Of a stretch of 64,000 bases of DNA, positions 8,311 through 63,325 are shown one piece after another; the stretch's first letter is position 1; each line of letters opens with the position of its first letter. A program made the position numbers and the translations under genes. The notes beneath the pieces are model-generated. The model had not been told where the DNA came from, did not search any database, and saw only the letters and a program-made list of their open reading frames with translations. The DNA comes from a virus (Duplodnaviria > Heunggongvirae > Uroviricota > Caudoviricetes), in the IMG/VR virus record IMGVR_UViG_3300037257_000073. The stretch is one strand, 5' to 3'.

Positions 8311-8664
8311 TTTTTATTAAAAAGGTAATATTATCATTAATTCTTTTCTAATTTCATAACTTAGTTTTTCAAACCAACATATAAATTCGTAATTATCTGT
8401 ATTATTAGTTAATGCAAATAATTCATGATCATAACAACATGAACCAAAACCTCTAACATATCGACCACAAACTTCAATTTGTTGACTATATATTAACTGA
8501 TGTGGTTGATCTGGATCTTGATAACCATATACACAACAAAGTCCATCGGGTTCACTTTTGTAATAACATGTCCAAAATCACCATTCTGATTGTGGTACAT
8601 CATCAAATTCTTCTTCAAGTCCAGATTCAGGATCTATATCTAAATTTACTGTTACTAATCTCAT
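8311..8664 (-). CDS. Cys-rich hypothetical protein with one in-frame TGA, paralog of 8675-8953
   Basis: 117-codon frame opens only if TGA at 8578-8580 is sense; the TGA aligns with an aromatic position of the paralog; both end in LPF. Confidence 0.45.
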
Positions 8665-8674
8665 TATTCTATTT

Positions 8675-8953
8675 TTAAAAAGGTAAATTATTTCTTATTT
8701 CATCAGGTAAGTTATTCATCCATTCTATAAATTTAGGATGATCTAAATGTTCATCAATAATAAGTAGTCCAACAGTTGCTGAACATTGTCCAGGATAACC
8801 TCTTGTTCCATTTACTTTTATCATATCACTAAAACTAAATTTATCATAGCCAATATTACCACCATAAAGACAACAACTTGCATTAGCACATTCCATAAGA
8901 CAACCTGTAAAGAAATACCATTTATACTCTGAATCTTCACCGTATTCATTCAT
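8675..8953 (-). CDS. Cys-rich hypothetical protein (paralog)
   Basis: ORF. Confidence 0.45.
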   Translation of the reverse strand: MNEYGEDSEYKWYFFTGCLMECANASCCLYGGNIGYDKFSFSDMIKVNGTRGYPGQCSATVGLLIIDEHLDHPKFIEWMNNLPDEIRNNLPF

Positions 8954-9143: not shown

Positions 9144-9317
9144 TTATTCTTCTGAATGTATTTCTCTGTGACAATTAGCACAGACCATAATACATTTATC
9201 TAATTCTTCTTTAACTTTTTCTCATGCTCTAGTATATCCTTTTGCTGATATTCCAAAATCTTTTTCATTTGGATCTAAATGTTGTTTCACCATGTGTTTT
9301 ACACACTCTCATTTCAT
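9144..9317 (-). CDS. HNH endonuclease-like small protein with two in-frame TGA
   Basis: C-terminal CANCHREIH motif; frame needs TGA as sense. Confidence 0.35.
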
Positions 9318-13508: not shown

Positions 13509-13528
13509 TTTATCTATTTTTATATTTG

Positions 13529-13611
13529 TACTCGAGGTCGGACTCGAACCGACACATCTTTCGACATATGCTCCTAAGGCATACGCGTATTAACCATTTC
13601 GCCACTCAAGC
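13529..13611 (-). tRNA. tRNA-Leu(TAG), type II
   Basis: anticodon arm TATGC-CTTAGGA-GCATA. Confidence 0.6.
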
Positions 13612-13616
13612 ATTTG

Positions 13617-13697
13617 CACATCAGGTAGGATTTGAACCCACGAACCTTTCGGATTAGTTTTGGAGACTAACTACTTTAACCGCTTGTATACTGACAT
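13617..13697 (-). tRNA. tRNA-Trp(CCA)
   Basis: anticodon arm TTAGT-CTCCAAA-ACTAA. Confidence 0.55.
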
Positions 13698-13703
13698 ATT
13701 TGC

Positions 13704-13782
13704 TCCCCCAAGGAGGACTCGAACCCACATGTCTCTCGACATATTCCGAAGAATACGCGTCTGCCAATTACGCCATTGGGGA
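13704..13782 (-). other. aberrant tRNA-like element without a decodable anticodon loop
   Basis: good acceptor, D-arm and T-arm, but the anticodon region is two tetraloop hairpins (CGTATTC-TTCG-GAATATG and ATGTC-GAGA-GACAT). Confidence 0.4.
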
Positions 13783-13788
13783 ATTTAG

Positions 13789-13877
13789 TGGGGGCGGAGG
13801 GCTTCGAACCCCCATGTCTCACGACCGCTATGGTCTAACCTATATTTAGCTGCGGCTACCAATTTCGCCACACCCCC
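13789..13877 (-). other. aberrant type-II tRNA-like element (anticodon loop ATATAGG)
   Basis: acceptor GGGGGTG/CGCCCCC, Leu-like D-arm, 4-bp anticodon stem CTAA/TTAG, ~20-nt variable arm. Confidence 0.4.
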
Positions 13878-14120: not shown

Positions 14121-14900
14121 TTATATTTTATCCCATTCATCATCAGACAAACTATTTATTTCTTTCTTTGAAGAAGGTATATTAAAATGTTTACACCATT
14201 TTCTAATAGCATTATCTGATCTATTGTATAATTTACCAATATTAATAAATGTTTCTGTGCGAACTAAAGTTTTTAAATATTCACGAGTTATACCAAGTTC
14301 ATCGTAAAAATCATTAGCTATTCGTTTAGCAGAACAACTTAAACATAAACCACTTACAGAAGAACTTGTTATAGTATTACCACAAGAATTACAATATAAT
14401 GCATCTATAACTTTATCTTTAACATTTTTACCTTTATAATTATCAGTAAAAGCATGACAGTTTGGACATAATAATTTAAGATTATTTAATTCATTATTAG
14501 TTTTAATACCATCTATGTGGTGTGTTTCTAATGGAATAGGTTCTCCCATTCATTTAGTATTATCACAACATTCACATTTATGTTCTTTTAGATTATTTTT
14601 TAATAATTTATCTCTTAACTTACTTGTTTGTGTATATGCTGAATCTTTACAAAAGATTGTATCTAAAGTGTACACATTCTTAGTTTCATTTGAAGAATTT
14701 CTTTTAAAATGAATTGTGCTAATTTGATGTTTTTTTATCTTAGTTTGAATTGTTTCATAATTACCAGCAGTTAAAGGCAACCCATAATATCTACACACAT
14801 CTGCAAAAGAATAACTTTCTTTTACAATTTTTTCTAAATTTTCTTTTGAATATTTGTTTTCCATAAATTGAACTATTATATTAATAGTACAAAGATACAA
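14121..14900 (-). CDS. HNH homing endonuclease with one in-frame TGA at 14550-14552
   Basis: two adjacent same-frame ORFs; CxxC sits upstream of the TGA and HHIDG..N..LCPNCH downstream, so the HNH motif spans the TGA. Confidence 0.6.
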
Positions 14901-25406: not shown

Positions 25407-26302
25407 TTTTCAGTATTTTTTAATAAGTCAACTAATAACTTTTTATGTTCTCCAACCAAGATTTTGTCTAGCTCAGGACCGTATGGGAACCATTTTAAGG
25501 CAGCAATATCATCTTGAGGTTGTGGACTACCAAAAGTATATTTACATTTGTATAAATGCGTCATAATTTTAGCATCATGTGAATTCTTATATCGCCAATC
25601 TTCTACACGTTTTGAACAAACGAATTCAAAGTCAGCAAGTTCAAGACCTGTTTCTTCTCTACCTTCACGACGAGCAGCAGCTTCATCGGATTCATCAGTA
25701 ACATCAACAAATCCTCCAACAAAACACCATTCTTTTTCATCAGGTTTTTGACCTAATAGAATTTCACCTTTTTCATTAAAGATTGCAACATCAACTGTTG
25801 AAAATGAGCGGGGATATTGTGAAAAAACCGAATAAATTATACCAGCTCTGAAATCAGATGATGCTAATATACGTCCGGCAACTTTCTTTCTAATATCTGT
25901 TGCAGATATATAGACTTCTGGTTCAAGTACAGTTGTTTTCCAATTTCCAGTATAATATGGAATAAACGAATCTTTACCTCCATAAAGAGTAACTGTTCCA
26001 GATGGAAAAATATCTCTTACTTTAGTACGAATTTGAGTAGACCATACTTCATTGGATTTACAATCAGCAAGTGGTACAATTGAAGATATTCTATTTCTAA
26101 AATGTGCTTCGATCATAGCTTTACGGGTAATAAAATCCAATGGATTTCTTTGAGTACCCATTGCAGATGTAGTTCCTAAGAATAAAATTACCTTTTCGTG
26201 GTTTGCAAGAACATGTTCAATTAACTTGATATGTTCAGTATGCAATTCGTGTAGCTGAAATCTCCCGATAACAACTCCAATTTCTGTTTGAGTTTCGTTC
26301 AT
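25403..26302 (-). CDS. bifunctional NMN adenylyltransferase / Nudix hydrolase (NadM-Nudix, NatV-like)
   Basis: N-terminal GVVIGRFQ nucleotidyltransferase motif; Nudix box GGFVDVTDESDEAAARREGREETGLEL; ends on TGA. Confidence 0.75.
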   Translation of the reverse strand: MNETQTEIGVVIGRFQLHELHTEHIKLIEHVLANHEKVILFLGTTSAMGTQRNPLDFITRKAMIEAHFRNRISSIVPLADCKSNEVWSTQIRTKVRDIFPSGTVTLYGGKDSFIPYYTGNWKTTVLEPEVYISATDIRKKVAGRILASSDFRAGIIYSVFSQYPRSFSTVDVAIFNEKGEILLGQKPDEKEWCFVGGFVDVTDESDEAAARREGREETGLELADFEFVCSKRVEDWRYKNSHDAKIMTHLYKCKYTFGSPQPQDDIAALKWFPYGPELDKILVGEHKKLLVDLLKNTEK

Positions 26303-26670
26303 TATGGATTTAAAAATTGTTTTAGCAATTCATCATTTAATATTGTGTCTGAATTATTTGCATAAAATTCCGCAAAATCAAACATTTGTTGTTTAGTAAA
26401 TTTAGGAATATTAATAAAATATAATTCTTTAAATTGTTCAAAAGTAATTTCTTCTCCTCTAAGTTGATCAAATATACCTTGTACAATATCTGATCCAGAT
26501 CTCGCCTCAAGATTATTTACTACAATAGAAATATCATTACTATCTGAATGTTCTTTAATGTTAGTTGTGTGTGATCCTACCCATGAACAATTATTTTTAA
26601 ATATTATTTCTTGAACAAATTTAAATTGATCCCTAGTAAGATGATGTATTTTAAAATTTTCGATTATCAT
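26302..26670 (-). CDS. tandem paralog family B, member 1
   Basis: MIIENFKIHHL..FKFVQEIIF ... FKELY. Confidence 0.5.
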   Translation of the reverse strand: MIIENFKIHHLTRDQFKFVQEIIFKNNCSWVGSHTTNIKEHSDSNDISIVVNNLEARSGSDIVQGIFDQLRGEEITFEQFKELYFINIPKFTKQQMFDFAEFYANNSDTILNDELLKQFLNP

Positions 26671-27038
26671 AATTTTAAGAAGTCAGTTAATACATCATCT
26701 GGAGATGATGCGCCAACTATATTGTTAGTGTAATATTCAGCAAATGCAAGGATTTTCTCTCTAGATATACGTAAAGTATTAGCATATTTTTCTTTAAATT
26801 GATCATATGTTAATTCTTCTCCTTCAAGACCATCAAATGTACTTTGGGTAACTACTACACCGGATCTTAACATACCTTTAGATGTCATACATAAAGTAAT
26901 AGTATTACTAGGACTAAACATTCTTAAATCTTTATCTAAGCTGCTTCCCCATCCACCACCATCGCGAAATACCATATTTTGAACAATTTTAGATTGTTCA
27001 TTATCAAGATGATATATTTTAAAAGGTTTTATTTCCAT
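26667..27038 (-). CDS. tandem paralog family B, member 2
   Basis: MEIKPFKIYHL..SKIVQNMVF. Confidence 0.5.
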   Translation of the reverse strand: MEIKPFKIYHLDNEQSKIVQNMVFRDGGGWGSSLDKDLRMFSPSNTITLCMTSKGMLRSGVVVTQSTFDGLEGEELTYDQFKEKYANTLRISREKILAFAEYYTNNIVGASSPDDVLTDFLKL

Positions 27039-27411
27039 TTTTTGGTTTTATAAAGTTATCAAATAATTGTTCTATTGTTAATTCATCATTTAAATGATCC
27101 ATACAATATTTAGCAAAATCAATACAAGTTTGTCTACTTGTTTCACCTTTACCAAAATATCTAATTTTAAATTCTTCTAATGTTATTTCAGGATTATCAT
27201 GATTATGAAAATATCCTCCAATAGTTGCATCACCAGTTATAGTATTATTTAAATAATGATATAACCCTTTCCACGAACTACCTTGGCTATCAACAAGATT
27301 AACTTCTGATTTACCATTTCTCCATTTTGAACCATTTTGAAATAATAGTTTTTGAACAAATATGGACTCTTCTGGATTATTTACTCTTATTTTAAAATTC
27401 TCATTTATCAT
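27019..27411 (-). CDS. tandem paralog family B, member 3
   Basis: MINENFKIRV..SIFVQKLLF. Confidence 0.5.
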   Translation of the reverse strand: MINENFKIRVNNPEESIFVQKLLFQNGSKWRNGKSEVNLVDSQGSSWKGLYHYLNNTITGDATIGGYFHNHDNPEITLEEFKIRYFGKGETSRQTCIDFAKYCMDHLNDELTIEQLFDNFIKPKNGNKTF

Positions 27412-27862
27412 TTTTCAGATTTAATATATATTCATCATATAATTCTTCAAATGTTTTTTCATCATTTAAATGGTTCATACAATATTGTACAAACAAAACA
27501 TATTTATTTTTTTCTGAATGAATAGAGTCAGTTACATATTTACTACAAAAATCTGCAAATGATATTTCATTTTTATCATGTCTATTAAACGATGATGTAG
27601 AAGTTATATCAGTAAATCCTCCAATTTTTTTAGTTACAGAATTATATTCAAGTCCATTCCAATTTATATTTGGATTAGGTCCAAATAAAACTGTTTCTTG
27701 ACCTTCTCTCCATTTAGCTCCATTAGAAAACAAAGTTTCTTGAACTATTTTATGTTCTCTTTCATCTGCAATTTTAATTTTAAAACTTTCAATCATTTTT
27801 CCAATCTTTAAATAGTTCTTGTGGCGTTTTTTCATCATTAAGGTGATCCATGTAATATTCAA
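27401..27862 (-). CDS. tandem paralog family B, member 4
   Basis: ..IESFKIKI..HKIVQETLF. Confidence 0.5.
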   Translation of the reverse strand: MNITWITLMMKKRHKNYLKIGKMIESFKIKIADEREHKIVQETLFSNGAKWREGQETVLFGPNPNINWNGLEYNSVTKKIGGFTDITSTSSFNRHDKNEISFADFCSKYVTDSIHSEKNKYVLFVQYCMNHLNDEKTFEELYDEYILNLKNDK

Positions 27863-28157
27863 TGAATTTAAACATGATATCAGTAGTAATTATAACATTT
27901 TTAGTTGAAACATTAAAAATATCATATTTTTCAATAAATTCATCATAAGTAATTTCTTTATGCTCATGATCATCAAAATGTACATTAGTATTTCCAAAAC
28001 CAGTCATTTGTTTTGAATGATATCTATAACAAATTCCTTCATAATAAAATGAAGATAAAAATTTCTCTAATAAACCCATACTACTTAATATTCTCTGAAC
28101 AGTTTTTATTTGATCAGGATTACTAACTTTCATCTTAAAATTTTCTACTATTTCCAT
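27789..28157 (-). CDS. tandem paralog family B, member 5
   Basis: MEIVENFKMKV..IKTVQRIL. Confidence 0.5.
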   Translation of the reverse strand: MEIVENFKMKVSNPDQIKTVQRILSSMGLLEKFLSSFYYEGICYRYHSKQMTGFGNTNVHFDDHEHKEITYDEFIEKYDIFNVSTKNVIITTDIMFKFIEYYMDHLNDEKTPQELFKDWKND

Positions 28158-28172
28158 TTAATTTCAATTTAA

Positions 28173-28579
<407 letters not shown>

Positions 28580-37749: not shown

Positions 37750-37879
37750 TTCTTTTTATCATTTTGTGTTTAACCTACACGAATTGTGTAACGCACTAAG
37801 CTTAATAACTTTATACTCCCTTAGTGGAGTTAAAACGAGGATGCTATAGAATCGTGATCCCATAGCATCCCTATTCTAT

Positions 37880-42701: not shown

Positions 42702-42787
42702 TATGGATAAAAGGATTTGAACCTCCGACCTCCGGCTAATGTTTTTGTCTTGCTGCCGACGCTCTAACCAGGCTGAGCTATATCCAA
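42702..42787 (-). other. aberrant tRNA-like element with an 18-nt anticodon loop
   Basis: normal D-arm GCTC/GAGC and T-arm GGAGG-TTCAAAT-CCTTT; stem TCGGC/GCCGG encloses AGCAAGACAAAAACATTA. Confidence 0.4.
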
Positions 42788-50362: not shown

Positions 50363-50773
50363 TTATTTATATCGAGGTAAATCTTGTTTAATTTTACTAT
50401 ATTCATTTCCTCCAATCATTAATCCATTTTTGTAAGCATGAATTTTATTTTCAGAATCAGTACACCATTCAAGATTTACTAATGAATTATTTAATTTATT
50501 TCCATCTATATGATTTACTTGTAAATTTTCAAAGATTGGTCTAAATGTTAACATTACTATTCTATGAACATGTAATGTTTTTATTCCATTTCTATTTTCA
50601 GCAGTAAATCTTAAATATCCAAATTTATTAGGAGATAATTTTAATATTTTCCCTTTTAATTTTCTTCCAATTTTAGATATTCTATTTAAACTTCTTATTC
50701 TTCCTAAATTAGAAACTTGATATATTTCTTCATATTCAGGAATGTCTTTTCAGATTTCTTCTATTTCTTGCAT
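50363..50773 (-). CDS. HNH homing endonuclease (NUMOD4-type N-terminus) with an in-frame TGA at 50750-50752
   Basis: MQEIEEI-TGA-KDIPEYEEIYQVSNLGRIRS; the TGA lies where the Trp of the conserved WKDIPGYEGLYQVSNLGRVRS motif sits; HNH VNHIDGNKLNNSLVNLEW. Confidence 0.6.
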
Positions 50774-56971: not shown

Positions 56972-57046
56972 GTTTTTGAGTTTGATATGTTTAAACATAT
57001 TTCGTCCAGTCTCATCAGAAACTATTTTATACTCTACTGGTTGAGT
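56972..57046. promoter_or_regulatory. conserved intergenic repeat R2
   Basis: TTTTGAGTTTG + palindrome ATATGTTTAAACATAT + TTTCGTCCAG + hairpin CCAGT..ACTGG. Confidence 0.45.
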
Positions 57047-58036
57047 TAATAAAAAAGAGAGTACACACTATATGTCCAAATGCGACGATGTGTACTCCCT
57101 TAGTGTTTGTTATCAAAATTAATATGATAACCATTGTTTACTTCGCGGTACATCACCGATAAAATCGGTGAATCTAACCGGGAAGCATTCTTTCGTAATA
57201 AAGAGCTTCACCCTTTTGCTCCCATAGCCAGTTTCAGGACGATATTACGTTGGCTTGTTTTTGACACCAGCAATTAGCACGGCATCGGTTTTAGTATACC
57301 TATCTTTTATTAATTTGTCTTCAAGGATTGACAGAATGGATGCTATTTGTACATATAGCCGTTATACCTTACACTCGGAAGTTCCACACTTTCATCGGAG
57401 GATTGCGCACAGGTTTTCATTATACTTATTTGCAGTTAGTATTATACTGTTTAAAGGCATCAAACCACCATACTGAATCTCTTCTTGATTAGTTATTCAG
57501 ATATGCTTCTTATATAAGAGATTATATTATTTATAACGTTATTATATAGAGAATATACATATCCAACCGTTTATCTGATGAAAGTTGCTTGATGCTAAGA
57601 GTTTAAAGTATATTTACAATAATTGCAGCTAATAAAAATCCAGCTGCGGCAGCATATAAATGCGACATAATATGATTTTCTTTATCAAAACATATTAATC
57701 CCATAAATATATCAAATGCTAAACATAGACTGAGTATAATTACCATTAGCTTATGTATTTAAACATTAATATTCCACAATCAATAAGTAAAGAAAGCATT
57801 ACATATCCCATTCGTGATTCTTCTTGCCATTTGATAATATTGAATTGTAGTCCAATAAATGAACCTAACAAGTAAAAGATAATCCATGGTGCAATGTATA
57901 ATAGAGTTTTTTCAGTTTTAGTCATGTTTTTTGATTTTACATTCTATTGATATAAACATTGCACACAATTCTACAAATAAATAGAAGATTAAGAACGGTG
58001 ATAAACAAATTACTATTGCTTGAGTTTTAGTTAACA

Positions 58037-59454: not shown

Positions 59455-59540
59455 TTTTTGAGTTTGACGGGAGTGATGAGCTCCCCGTTTCGTCCTAGTC
59501 TCTTCAGAAACTGATGTTATACTCTCCTAGGCTGAGTCAT
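59455..59540. promoter_or_regulatory. conserved intergenic repeat R3
   Basis: TTTTGAGTTTG + hairpin ACGGGAG..CTCCCCGT + TTTCGTCCTAG + hairpin CCTAG..CTAGG. Confidence 0.45.
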
Positions 59541-62530: not shown

Positions 62531-63325
62531 TTGTGTATCAAATTTAATACGATGAGTGAAGAAAAAGAAAAGAAAACAAATAGACACGTCCAAGTGCCAA
62601 ACTCTGTCGCTAACAATGTAGACAGTGATAAGAAATCTAAATACAAAAAGCACTATACTGATGTCTTAGTTTATGGTTTTCTTCGAAAAAATATGGACGG
62701 AAAAACAATGGTGGCATTTATATCCTTAAAAATTATAGCAGACTCGATTGACATGTCGGTCGGTGGTGTATCAGCTGCAATTAAAAGATTAGAAGAAGCA
62801 GGAGATGTAACAAAAATTAAAATGGAAGGTGGACGAAATCAAAATGGATATAAATTTAATCCACATTCCGACAAGTTTGAAATGTATGATTTAAGTTTCC
62901 TCGAAAATAAAGAACTTAATAGTTTACAGAAATCATATTATATGATTATGCAACCTTATTTATATATTGATAAAGAAACTGGAATAGGTAAAACTACTTA
63001 TAGTGATATTGAAATTTCAGAAATAACAGGTATATCTAAAACAGTAGCACAAGAACGTAGACGAGAATTAGAATCACTTGGTTTTATAAACAGAAGAACA
63101 ACTACAGATATGGAAGGTAACTCTTGTGAAGCACTTGAATTTAATCTTCCTAAGTTTGGACAATTTGTTATGTGTAAAATTAAAGAACACGATGTTGCAA
63201 TAACTGATTTAAATATAAAAGTAAATCAATTAGAACAAGAACTAAATCATCTAAGAAAACAAATGAAACTTAAAGGAGAATATACTCCTTACGAAGAAAA
63301 CACTAATAACGAAATAACATTATAA
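62531..63325 (+). CDS. HTH DNA-binding protein, candidate replication initiator or regulator
   Basis: two HTH-like segments (ISLKIIADSIDMSVGGVSAAIKRLEEAG; ISEITGISKTVAQERRRELESLGFI); directly downstream of the iterons; no Trp. Confidence 0.4.
   Translation: MCIKFNTMSEEKEKKTNRHVQVPNSVANNVDSDKKSKYKKHYTDVLVYGFLRKNMDGKTMVAFISLKIIADSIDMSVGGVSAAIKRLEEAGDVTKIKMEGGRNQNGYKFNPHSDKFEMYDLSFLENKELNSLQKSYYMIMQPYLYIDKETGIGKTTYSDIEISEITGISKTVAQERRRELESLGFINRRTTTDMEGNSCEALEFNLPKFGQFVMCKIKEHDVAITDLNIKVNQLEQELNHLRKQMKLKGEYTPYEENTNNEITL

Follow-up and report, generated by a model that had tools for sequence, protein, structure and literature searches.

The paralogous gene pair at the locus

Two adjacent genes on the minus strand of the window, by which we mean the whole 64,000-nucleotide stretch of viral DNA that was analysed, encode related small proteins that both end in LPF, and one of the two carries a stop codon within its reading frame:

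8675..8953, minus strand: copy A, an intact 92-residue open reading frame with no in-frame stop and the C-terminus ...NNLPF
8317..8664, minus strand: copy B, 115 codons followed by TAA, with a single in-frame TGA and the C-terminus ...IILPF
8578..8580 (read 8580-8578), minus strand: the in-frame TGA of copy B, codon 29, which the orthologs suggest is decoded as Trp

The pair had been picked out in an earlier note, and the relationship proposed there is borne out by BLASTP, which aligns the two products at 28% identity over 93 residues (E=3e-8) in an alignment that spans the TGA. Copy B had been placed at 8311-8664; its start stands, as the gene opens with ATG at 8664-8662, but its other end moves to 8317, where a TAA terminator (8319-8317) is followed directly by a second TAA (8316-8314), and the strand has also been corrected to minus. 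As had been claimed, the only in-frame stop of copy B is the TGA at 8578-8580, in the context ...PQSEW-TGA-FWTCYY..., and the segment around it does align with EYKWYFFTGC of the intact copy: both BLASTP and MAFFT pair KWYFFT of copy A with EW*FWT of copy B, such that the TGA lies opposite Tyr13 of copy A. The frame also continues beyond the TGA, for 86 sense codons and not the 'about 88' first counted, with no frameshift and no second stop on the way. In this window an in-frame TAA or TAG is normally met within a median of ~7 codons, and an open run of 86 codons in a genome of ~30% GC is well beyond chance. After the TGA there is no ATG, GTG or TTG until codon 80, that is, six codons before the end, and the downstream part therefore cannot be a separate open reading frame. 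Nor is the TGA a sequencing error, because the DNA of copy B, TGA included, is identical in 10 of 10 contigs, each assembled independently from JGI, ENA or Logan samples.

The description of the pair as Cys-rich fits only moderately, as there are seven Cys among the 115 residues of copy B and five among the 92 of copy A, and the only Cys feature kept in every family member is a CC pair (residues 43-44). Neither copy matches a Pfam or PHROG family. In an AF2 model of copy B (pLDDT 77.8), a beta-sheet formed by residues 27-84 is followed by two helices (residues 92-112), and the first 20 residues are disordered; the model has no fold match in the PDB or BFVD, and the predicted product is an orphan small domain made up of the sheet and the two helices. 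Residue 29 is located in the first beta-strand of the model, and a product ending at codon 28 would be without the entire fold.

Homologs and evolution of copy B

The two copies belong to a tiny family: when 5.8 billion proteins were searched by word index and 1.84 billion representatives by exhaustive profile comparison, only a handful of members came up, the profile search giving seven hits that all belong to the same small family except for one marginal hit in a 5,555-residue protein. Among the members are two B-type orthologs from diverged phages, P0002 on contig L001 (~62-63% amino acid identity, with the same gene order) and P0004 on contig L021 (47%), and in both of them codon 29 is TGG: both contigs read 'GAA TGG TGG TTT TGG' where the window reads 'GAA TGG TGA TTT TGG'. 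In all three A-type paralogs the same column is Tyr. The suggestion that the TGA takes the place of an aromatic residue or of Trp is supported by these homologs, and the TGA of copy B appears to have arisen from a Trp codon by a derived G-to-A change confined to this lineage. The earlier note had named homologs ending at this position, or a downstream frame that shows no conservation, as observations that would speak against its reading; what is found is that the homologs continue past this position, and that the downstream blocks LCCVYGYQDP, ELFALTNNTD, WF.KL and ILPF are kept in homologs down to 47% identity.

The rate at which copy B changes differs between its two parts. Compared with its ortholog at 3423-3782 of L001, copy B (8317-8664) has a dN/dS of 0.89 overall, composed of 0.33 before the TGA and ~1.1 over the 86 codons after it, with few sites behind the estimate, and its N-terminal 28 codons are far better conserved than the remainder. 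Copy A is 89% identical to its own L001 ortholog with a dN/dS of 0.37, and the genes neighbouring copy B show 85-93% amino acid identity to L001 and dN/dS values of 0.19-0.57. When P0004 is used as the outgroup, the amino acid changes between the window and L001 divide into eight that are window-specific and five that are L001-specific. Because this split includes a lineage that still bears TGG, the fast change would seem to be a trait of the copy B family and not decay that set in once the TGA had arisen, even if fast downstream evolution is also what relaxed constraint would give. As all 10 contigs are identical in copy B, they are uninformative on selection within the population.

Sense and terminal TGAs in the two transcription arms

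The window has ~30% GC, and its genes lie nearly all on the minus strand up to ~62 kb, at which point a plus-strand arm begins. Its RNA genes are 24 tRNAs, a tmRNA and three small ribozymes, and its protein genes include NAD-salvage, Nudix, glutathionylspermidine-synthase, AAA-ATPase and homing-endonuclease genes, a content typical of a large phage. Many metagenomic contigs share this sequence, and the longest of those that carry copy B measures 213,486 bp. No close relative was found among 50,697 GenBank phage records, and the NrdJ-like protein is only 44-46% identical to its matches in cultured phages. A 103-residue gene at 63325 links the window to contig L017, which extends beyond its right end; the 10,676-nt overlap between the two contains one mismatch, and L017 therefore represents the same phage.

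All TAA- or TAG-bounded frames were scanned for internal TGA, and the sequence on either side of each stop was scored for coding potential. Genes that are otherwise intact are interrupted by TGA only, and nowhere in the window by TAA or TAG. How the TGAs are distributed differs markedly between the arms (Fisher p=1.6e-6 for internal TGA versus TGG use):

Minus arm: 102 scored genes; 229 TGG; 3-5 genuine internal TGAs; about a dozen genes end at TGA
Plus arm: 19 genes over 11 kb; 32 TGG; 10 internal TGAs; all terminators are TAA or TAG

In the plus arm, TGA accounts for about a quarter of the Trp codons and terminates none of the 19 genes, one of which has a TGA followed directly by TAA. The following features, in addition to copy B, bear on how TGA is read:

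63637..64008 (8 nt past the window end), plus strand: GNAT-like acetyltransferase gene (Pfam Acetyltransf_1, E=1.7e-4)
L017 13328-13401, equivalent to window 66652-66725 and 2.65 kb beyond the window end, plus strand: 74-nt tRNA with anticodon UCA (ARAGORN 'tca')
14121..14864, minus strand: HNH homing endonuclease gene (hegA / F-TflIV-like), with a TGA at 14552-14550 in the HNH motif CECCDNTK-TGA-MGEPIPLETHHIDG
50363..50773, minus strand: NUMOD4 + HNH_3 homing endonuclease gene (I-HmuI-like), with a TGA at 50752-50750
9144..9317, minus strand: remnant of an HNH endonuclease gene, its last ~57 codons, with two TGAs (9311 and 9224); the evidence here is soft

The GNAT-like gene has five in-frame TGAs (63727, 63868, 63886, 63898 and 63958) and TGG is absent from it. 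All five are kept as TGA in the relatives L023 (85% amino acid identity) and L024 (77%), and TGA is therefore a selected sense codon in this gene. The PhoH gene of the plus arm matches PDB 3b85 across its own TGA, which falls opposite an Asp of 3b85 in a variable column, and in-frame TGAs are also present in at least four small plus-arm open reading frames.

In the minus arm, homology of the 14121..14864 gene product to T5 hegA and F-TflIV-type enzymes is detected by tblastn on both sides of its TGA, and the TGA column is W in four of four full-length phage homologs. A third HNH gene, located at 13419-13985 of L017 on the plus strand and homologous to that at 14121-14864, uses TGG. The product of 50363..50773 matches Pfam NUMOD4 (E=2e-17) and HNH_3 (E=7e-11), with the TGA opposite Trp3 of I-HmuI (PDB 1u3e). 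The closest homolog of the remnant at 9144..9317 is the HNH gene in Klebsiella phage Muenster (82% nucleotide identity), where Phe (RSFEKL) stands opposite the TGA at 9224. Had the TGAs of copy B and of the two longer HNH genes arisen as random nonsense mutations, genome codon usage would give each a 3-12% likelihood of being a TGG>TGA change, and all three would be so with a probability of only 2e-5 to 2e-3.

The UCA tRNA is identical in L017, L018 and L019, scores 62.9 bits against the Rfam tRNA model, and has a normal cloverleaf with a 7-bp acceptor stem and a short variable loop. Its A1-U72 pair, its discriminator G73 and its anticodon loop CUUCAAA are those typical of bacterial tRNA-Trp. 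Of the 29 tRNAs with which it was compared, the closest is an annotated phage tRNA-Trp (69% identity); the label 'tRNA-SeC' that ARAGORN attaches to it is due to the anticodon only. None of the 25 tRNA or tRNA-like genes inside the window has a UCA anticodon, and the 74 kb covered by the analysis showed neither RF1 nor TrpRS.

At the ends of minus-arm genes, TGA seems to retain its usual meaning. The terminal TGAs there often overlap the start of the next gene (ATGATTGA), and the TGA that closes the fmt gene is 8 nt before a tRNA-Tyr gene, into which read-through would run for 30 codons. Two minus-arm TGA stops are conserved as the terminal codon in the relative L001, and for these two genes, the ones checked, the sequence beyond the stop is not conserved. 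These terminal TGAs are thus best understood as real stops, and their conservation argues for a host with RF2. If TGA still terminates translation in this arm, suppression may be partial or limited in time, with some of the ribosomes stopping at codon 29 of copy B. Unusually early backup stops, which would hint at leaky termination, are not seen: TAA or TAG does not follow TGA-ended genes sooner than expected (median 5 versus 7 codons, Mann-Whitney p=0.13). Sense and terminal TGAs also cannot be told apart by the base that follows them.

Two candidate lines of support for read-through were rejected. Five tandem paralogs of ~125-145 residues at 26302-28157 (minus strand) start with M-x-I-E-N/S-F-K-I and have overlapping stops and starts, three of them ending in TGA; the 'KF*/EF*/TF*' tails seen after these stops are not read-through C-termini but the N-terminus of the next paralog (M-I-E-N-F-K-I) out of frame. 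Similarly, the 115-residue database protein P0001, which has W at the TGA position of copy B, might have been taken as independent support, but the fmt gene of the same contig was called as ending at TGA. Gene callers do in fact disagree on this phage: ENA calls split the TGA-containing genes (PhoH into 111 and 70 residues) and JGI calls read through them, and databases therefore hold both truncated and full versions of the same products, such as the 28-residue P0008 and the 115-residue P0001 for copy B.

Readings of the in-frame TGA

In the reading that we favour, and hold with considerable confidence, this large uncultured phage reads TGA as Trp by means of its own suppressor tRNA, and copy B yields a full product of 115 residues. 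The 74-nt UCA tRNA would presumably be charged by the TrpRS of the host, and with the tRNA so charged a ribosome arriving at codon 29 would insert Trp and go on to complete the protein. In-frame TGAs would occur in several genes because the phage encodes a Trp-type UCA suppressor tRNA; they are numerous in the plus arm, and copy B would be one of the few suppressor-dependent genes in a minus arm that is otherwise compatible with the standard code. The TGG-to-TGA step in copy B would then have been a G-to-A transition in an AT-rich genome and in a lineage already recoded, and it would have been effectively synonymous because the suppressor tRNA reads the new codon.

It is tempting to speculate that the TGA of copy B was instead selected as a gate, with full-length copy B and the two homing endonucleases made to depend on the level of the suppressor tRNA, and so produced late or at low dose, while copy A is made unconditionally. 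Regulation of this kind has been proposed by Borges et al. (bioRxiv 10.1101/2021.08.26.457843). Two of the three firm sense TGAs of the minus arm fall in HNH genes, which hold only ~5 of its ~233 Trp codons (~2%; binomial ~1e-3), and the GNAT-like gene, whose five Trp codons are all TGA here and in relatives alike, gives the impression of selection and not of drift. Since TGA remains a working terminator in the minus arm, competition with release factor is also plausible. We nonetheless consider the idea rather unlikely for copy B: its TGA is derived and limited to one lineage, both known orthologs having TGG, and a gate is thus not conserved; the HNH genes are mobile and could have arrived with TGA already in place; and the following base does not distinguish sense from terminal TGAs. 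The lack of conservation in relatives fits neutral, effectively synonymous drift better than it would fit a gate. A further elaboration, which might be called a 'code lock', would have sense TGAs placed deliberately in minus-arm genes that are selfish or potentially harmful (the two HNH genes and one member of the fast-evolving paralog pair), with the suppressor tRNA setting dose and timing and the codon serving, within this one arm, as terminator early in infection and as Trp later; this is more doubtful still.

It could also be argued that copy B is a young pseudogene, in which a recent nonsense mutation leaves only a 28-residue peptide and the downstream frame is too young to have decayed. 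A paralog pair provides redundancy, the dN/dS after the TGA is ~1, in an AT-rich genome the G>A transition from TGG to TGA comes easily, and DNA that is identical in all contigs is compatible with a recent origin. However, a Trp-type UCA suppressor tRNA makes a TGG>TGA change nearly silent, and wherever a gene of the window is interrupted, it is by a TGA in an aromatic or Trp column and never by TAA or TAG. Moreover, the lineage with TGA has no excess of changes (the eight versus five noted above) and no frameshifts, and evolution is also fast in the lineage of the intact, TGG-bearing ortholog. Taken together, these points make a pseudogene improbable.

Quite improbable as well is that the host itself uses code 4, as Mycoplasma and Spiroplasma do, and that the phage merely follows it, with TGA never being a stop. 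The AT-rich genome (~30% GC) and in-frame TGAs at Trp positions are what one would expect of such a phage, and phages of code-25 hosts are known. Against this, TGA is far more common at the ends of minus-arm genes than inside them; that the terminal position of TGA is conserved in L001 and the extensions are not argues against a host in which TGA never stops, and fmt would in that case be read 30 codons on, into the adjacent tRNA-Tyr gene. In the minus arm TGG outnumbers TGA by ~50:1; organisms with true code 4 have no such excess of TGG. Finally, insertion of selenocysteine, for which one could cite the several Cys residues of the protein and the ARAGORN label on the UCA tRNA, can be dismissed with near certainty, as homologs have Trp or Tyr in the TGA column and never Cys, a SECIS-like hairpin is lacking (the 81-nt stretch that spans and follows the TGA gives z=+1.26, its fold being matched or bettered in stability by 183 of 200 shuffles), the 74-nt tRNA with its short variable loop and 7-bp acceptor stem does not have the long-arm Sec architecture, and TGAs are found in many unrelated genes, five of them in the one GNAT gene.

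Recoding of TGA to Trp ('code 4') is a known phenomenon, and what is new here is an uncultured phage with a clear contrast between its two arms. Phages that use code 4 with TGA suppressor tRNAs, and in which recoded and standard-compatible regions are mixed, have been described (Borges et al., bioRxiv 10.1101/2021.08.26.457843). The phage studied here resembles their Agate and Jade clades in having in-frame TGAs at Trp columns, a phage-encoded UCA suppressor tRNA and mixed regions, and in being a large phage with many tRNAs. It differs in several respects. It has no close GenBank relative, its 74 kb covered here show neither RF1 nor TrpRS, and it comes from JGI, ENA and Logan metagenomes, the survey of Borges et al. 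having covered gut microbiomes. The partition follows two divergent transcription arms, and the recoded genes so far are those for a GNAT-like acetyltransferase, PhoH, small open reading frames and HNH endonucleases, and not structural or lysis genes. A comparable situation is that of the crAss-like and Lak phages in which TAG is recoded to Gln (code 15), as validated by metaproteomics (PMC9523058): there too a stop codon has become a sense codon through a phage suppressor tRNA, unevenly across the genome, but the codon and the amino acid are others and the assignment is backed by peptides, whereas the present phage is known from its sequence alone. With Mycoplasma and Spiroplasma it shares the reading of UGA as Trp by a tRNA-Trp with anticodon UCA, yet in those organisms the reassignment is complete, RF2 being absent and TGA the major Trp codon, and here TGA is a minority Trp codon that still ends minus-arm genes. 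The resemblance to bacterial selenoprotein genes goes no further than an in-frame UGA in a Cys-containing protein, since SECIS hairpin, Cys/Sec column and Sec-type tRNA are all absent.

For annotation, the consequence is that this contig needs to be translated with TGA as Trp, at least in the plus arm and in a few minus-arm genes. If it is not, the predicted genes for PhoH, the GNAT-like acetyltransferase, the two HNH endonucleases and copy B come out split or cut short, and one public caller did split several of them. The TGA of copy B reveals no new mechanism, but it adds a large uncultured phage, one with no cultured relatives and with a clean contrast of two arms, to the code-4 phages. As TGA is a conserved terminator and a conserved sense codon in one and the same genome, the phage could serve as a convenient natural system in which to study the sharing of a single codon between suppressor tRNA and release factor 2 during infection.

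Several further features of the window were noted. At 13528-13877 (minus strand) there are four tandem tRNA-like genes with long variable arms, all identical in contig L002: one is a Leu(UAG) tRNA, another has a CCA anticodon and is the only CCA tRNA of the window, a third is called 'Tyr(ATA)' by ARAGORN, and one, with a 5-bp anticodon arm and the 6-nt loop CTTCGG, is assigned nothing by that program. A tRNA-like gene at 42702-42787 (minus strand; Rfam tRNA 47.5 bits), missed by ARAGORN, has an 18-nt anticodon loop, AGCAAGACAAAAACATTA, that does not contain UCA, and may represent an insertion, an intron or a decoy. The tmRNA at 28171-28579 (minus strand) scores 107 bits in Rfam, and ARAGORN gives its tag peptide as GNKTISFARTAFMAAA. 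The three small ribozymes, two RAGATH-1 hammerheads at 56979-57047 and 59461-59538 and a Pistol at 37769-37830, all on the minus strand and above the Rfam gathering scores, sit between small minus-strand genes. Between 22330 and 26302, also on the minus strand, genes for a Nudix-domain protein, a nucleoside 2-deoxyribosyltransferase-like protein, a NAMPT/NAPRTase and a PNKP-type HAD phosphatase form a nucleotide/NAD cluster.
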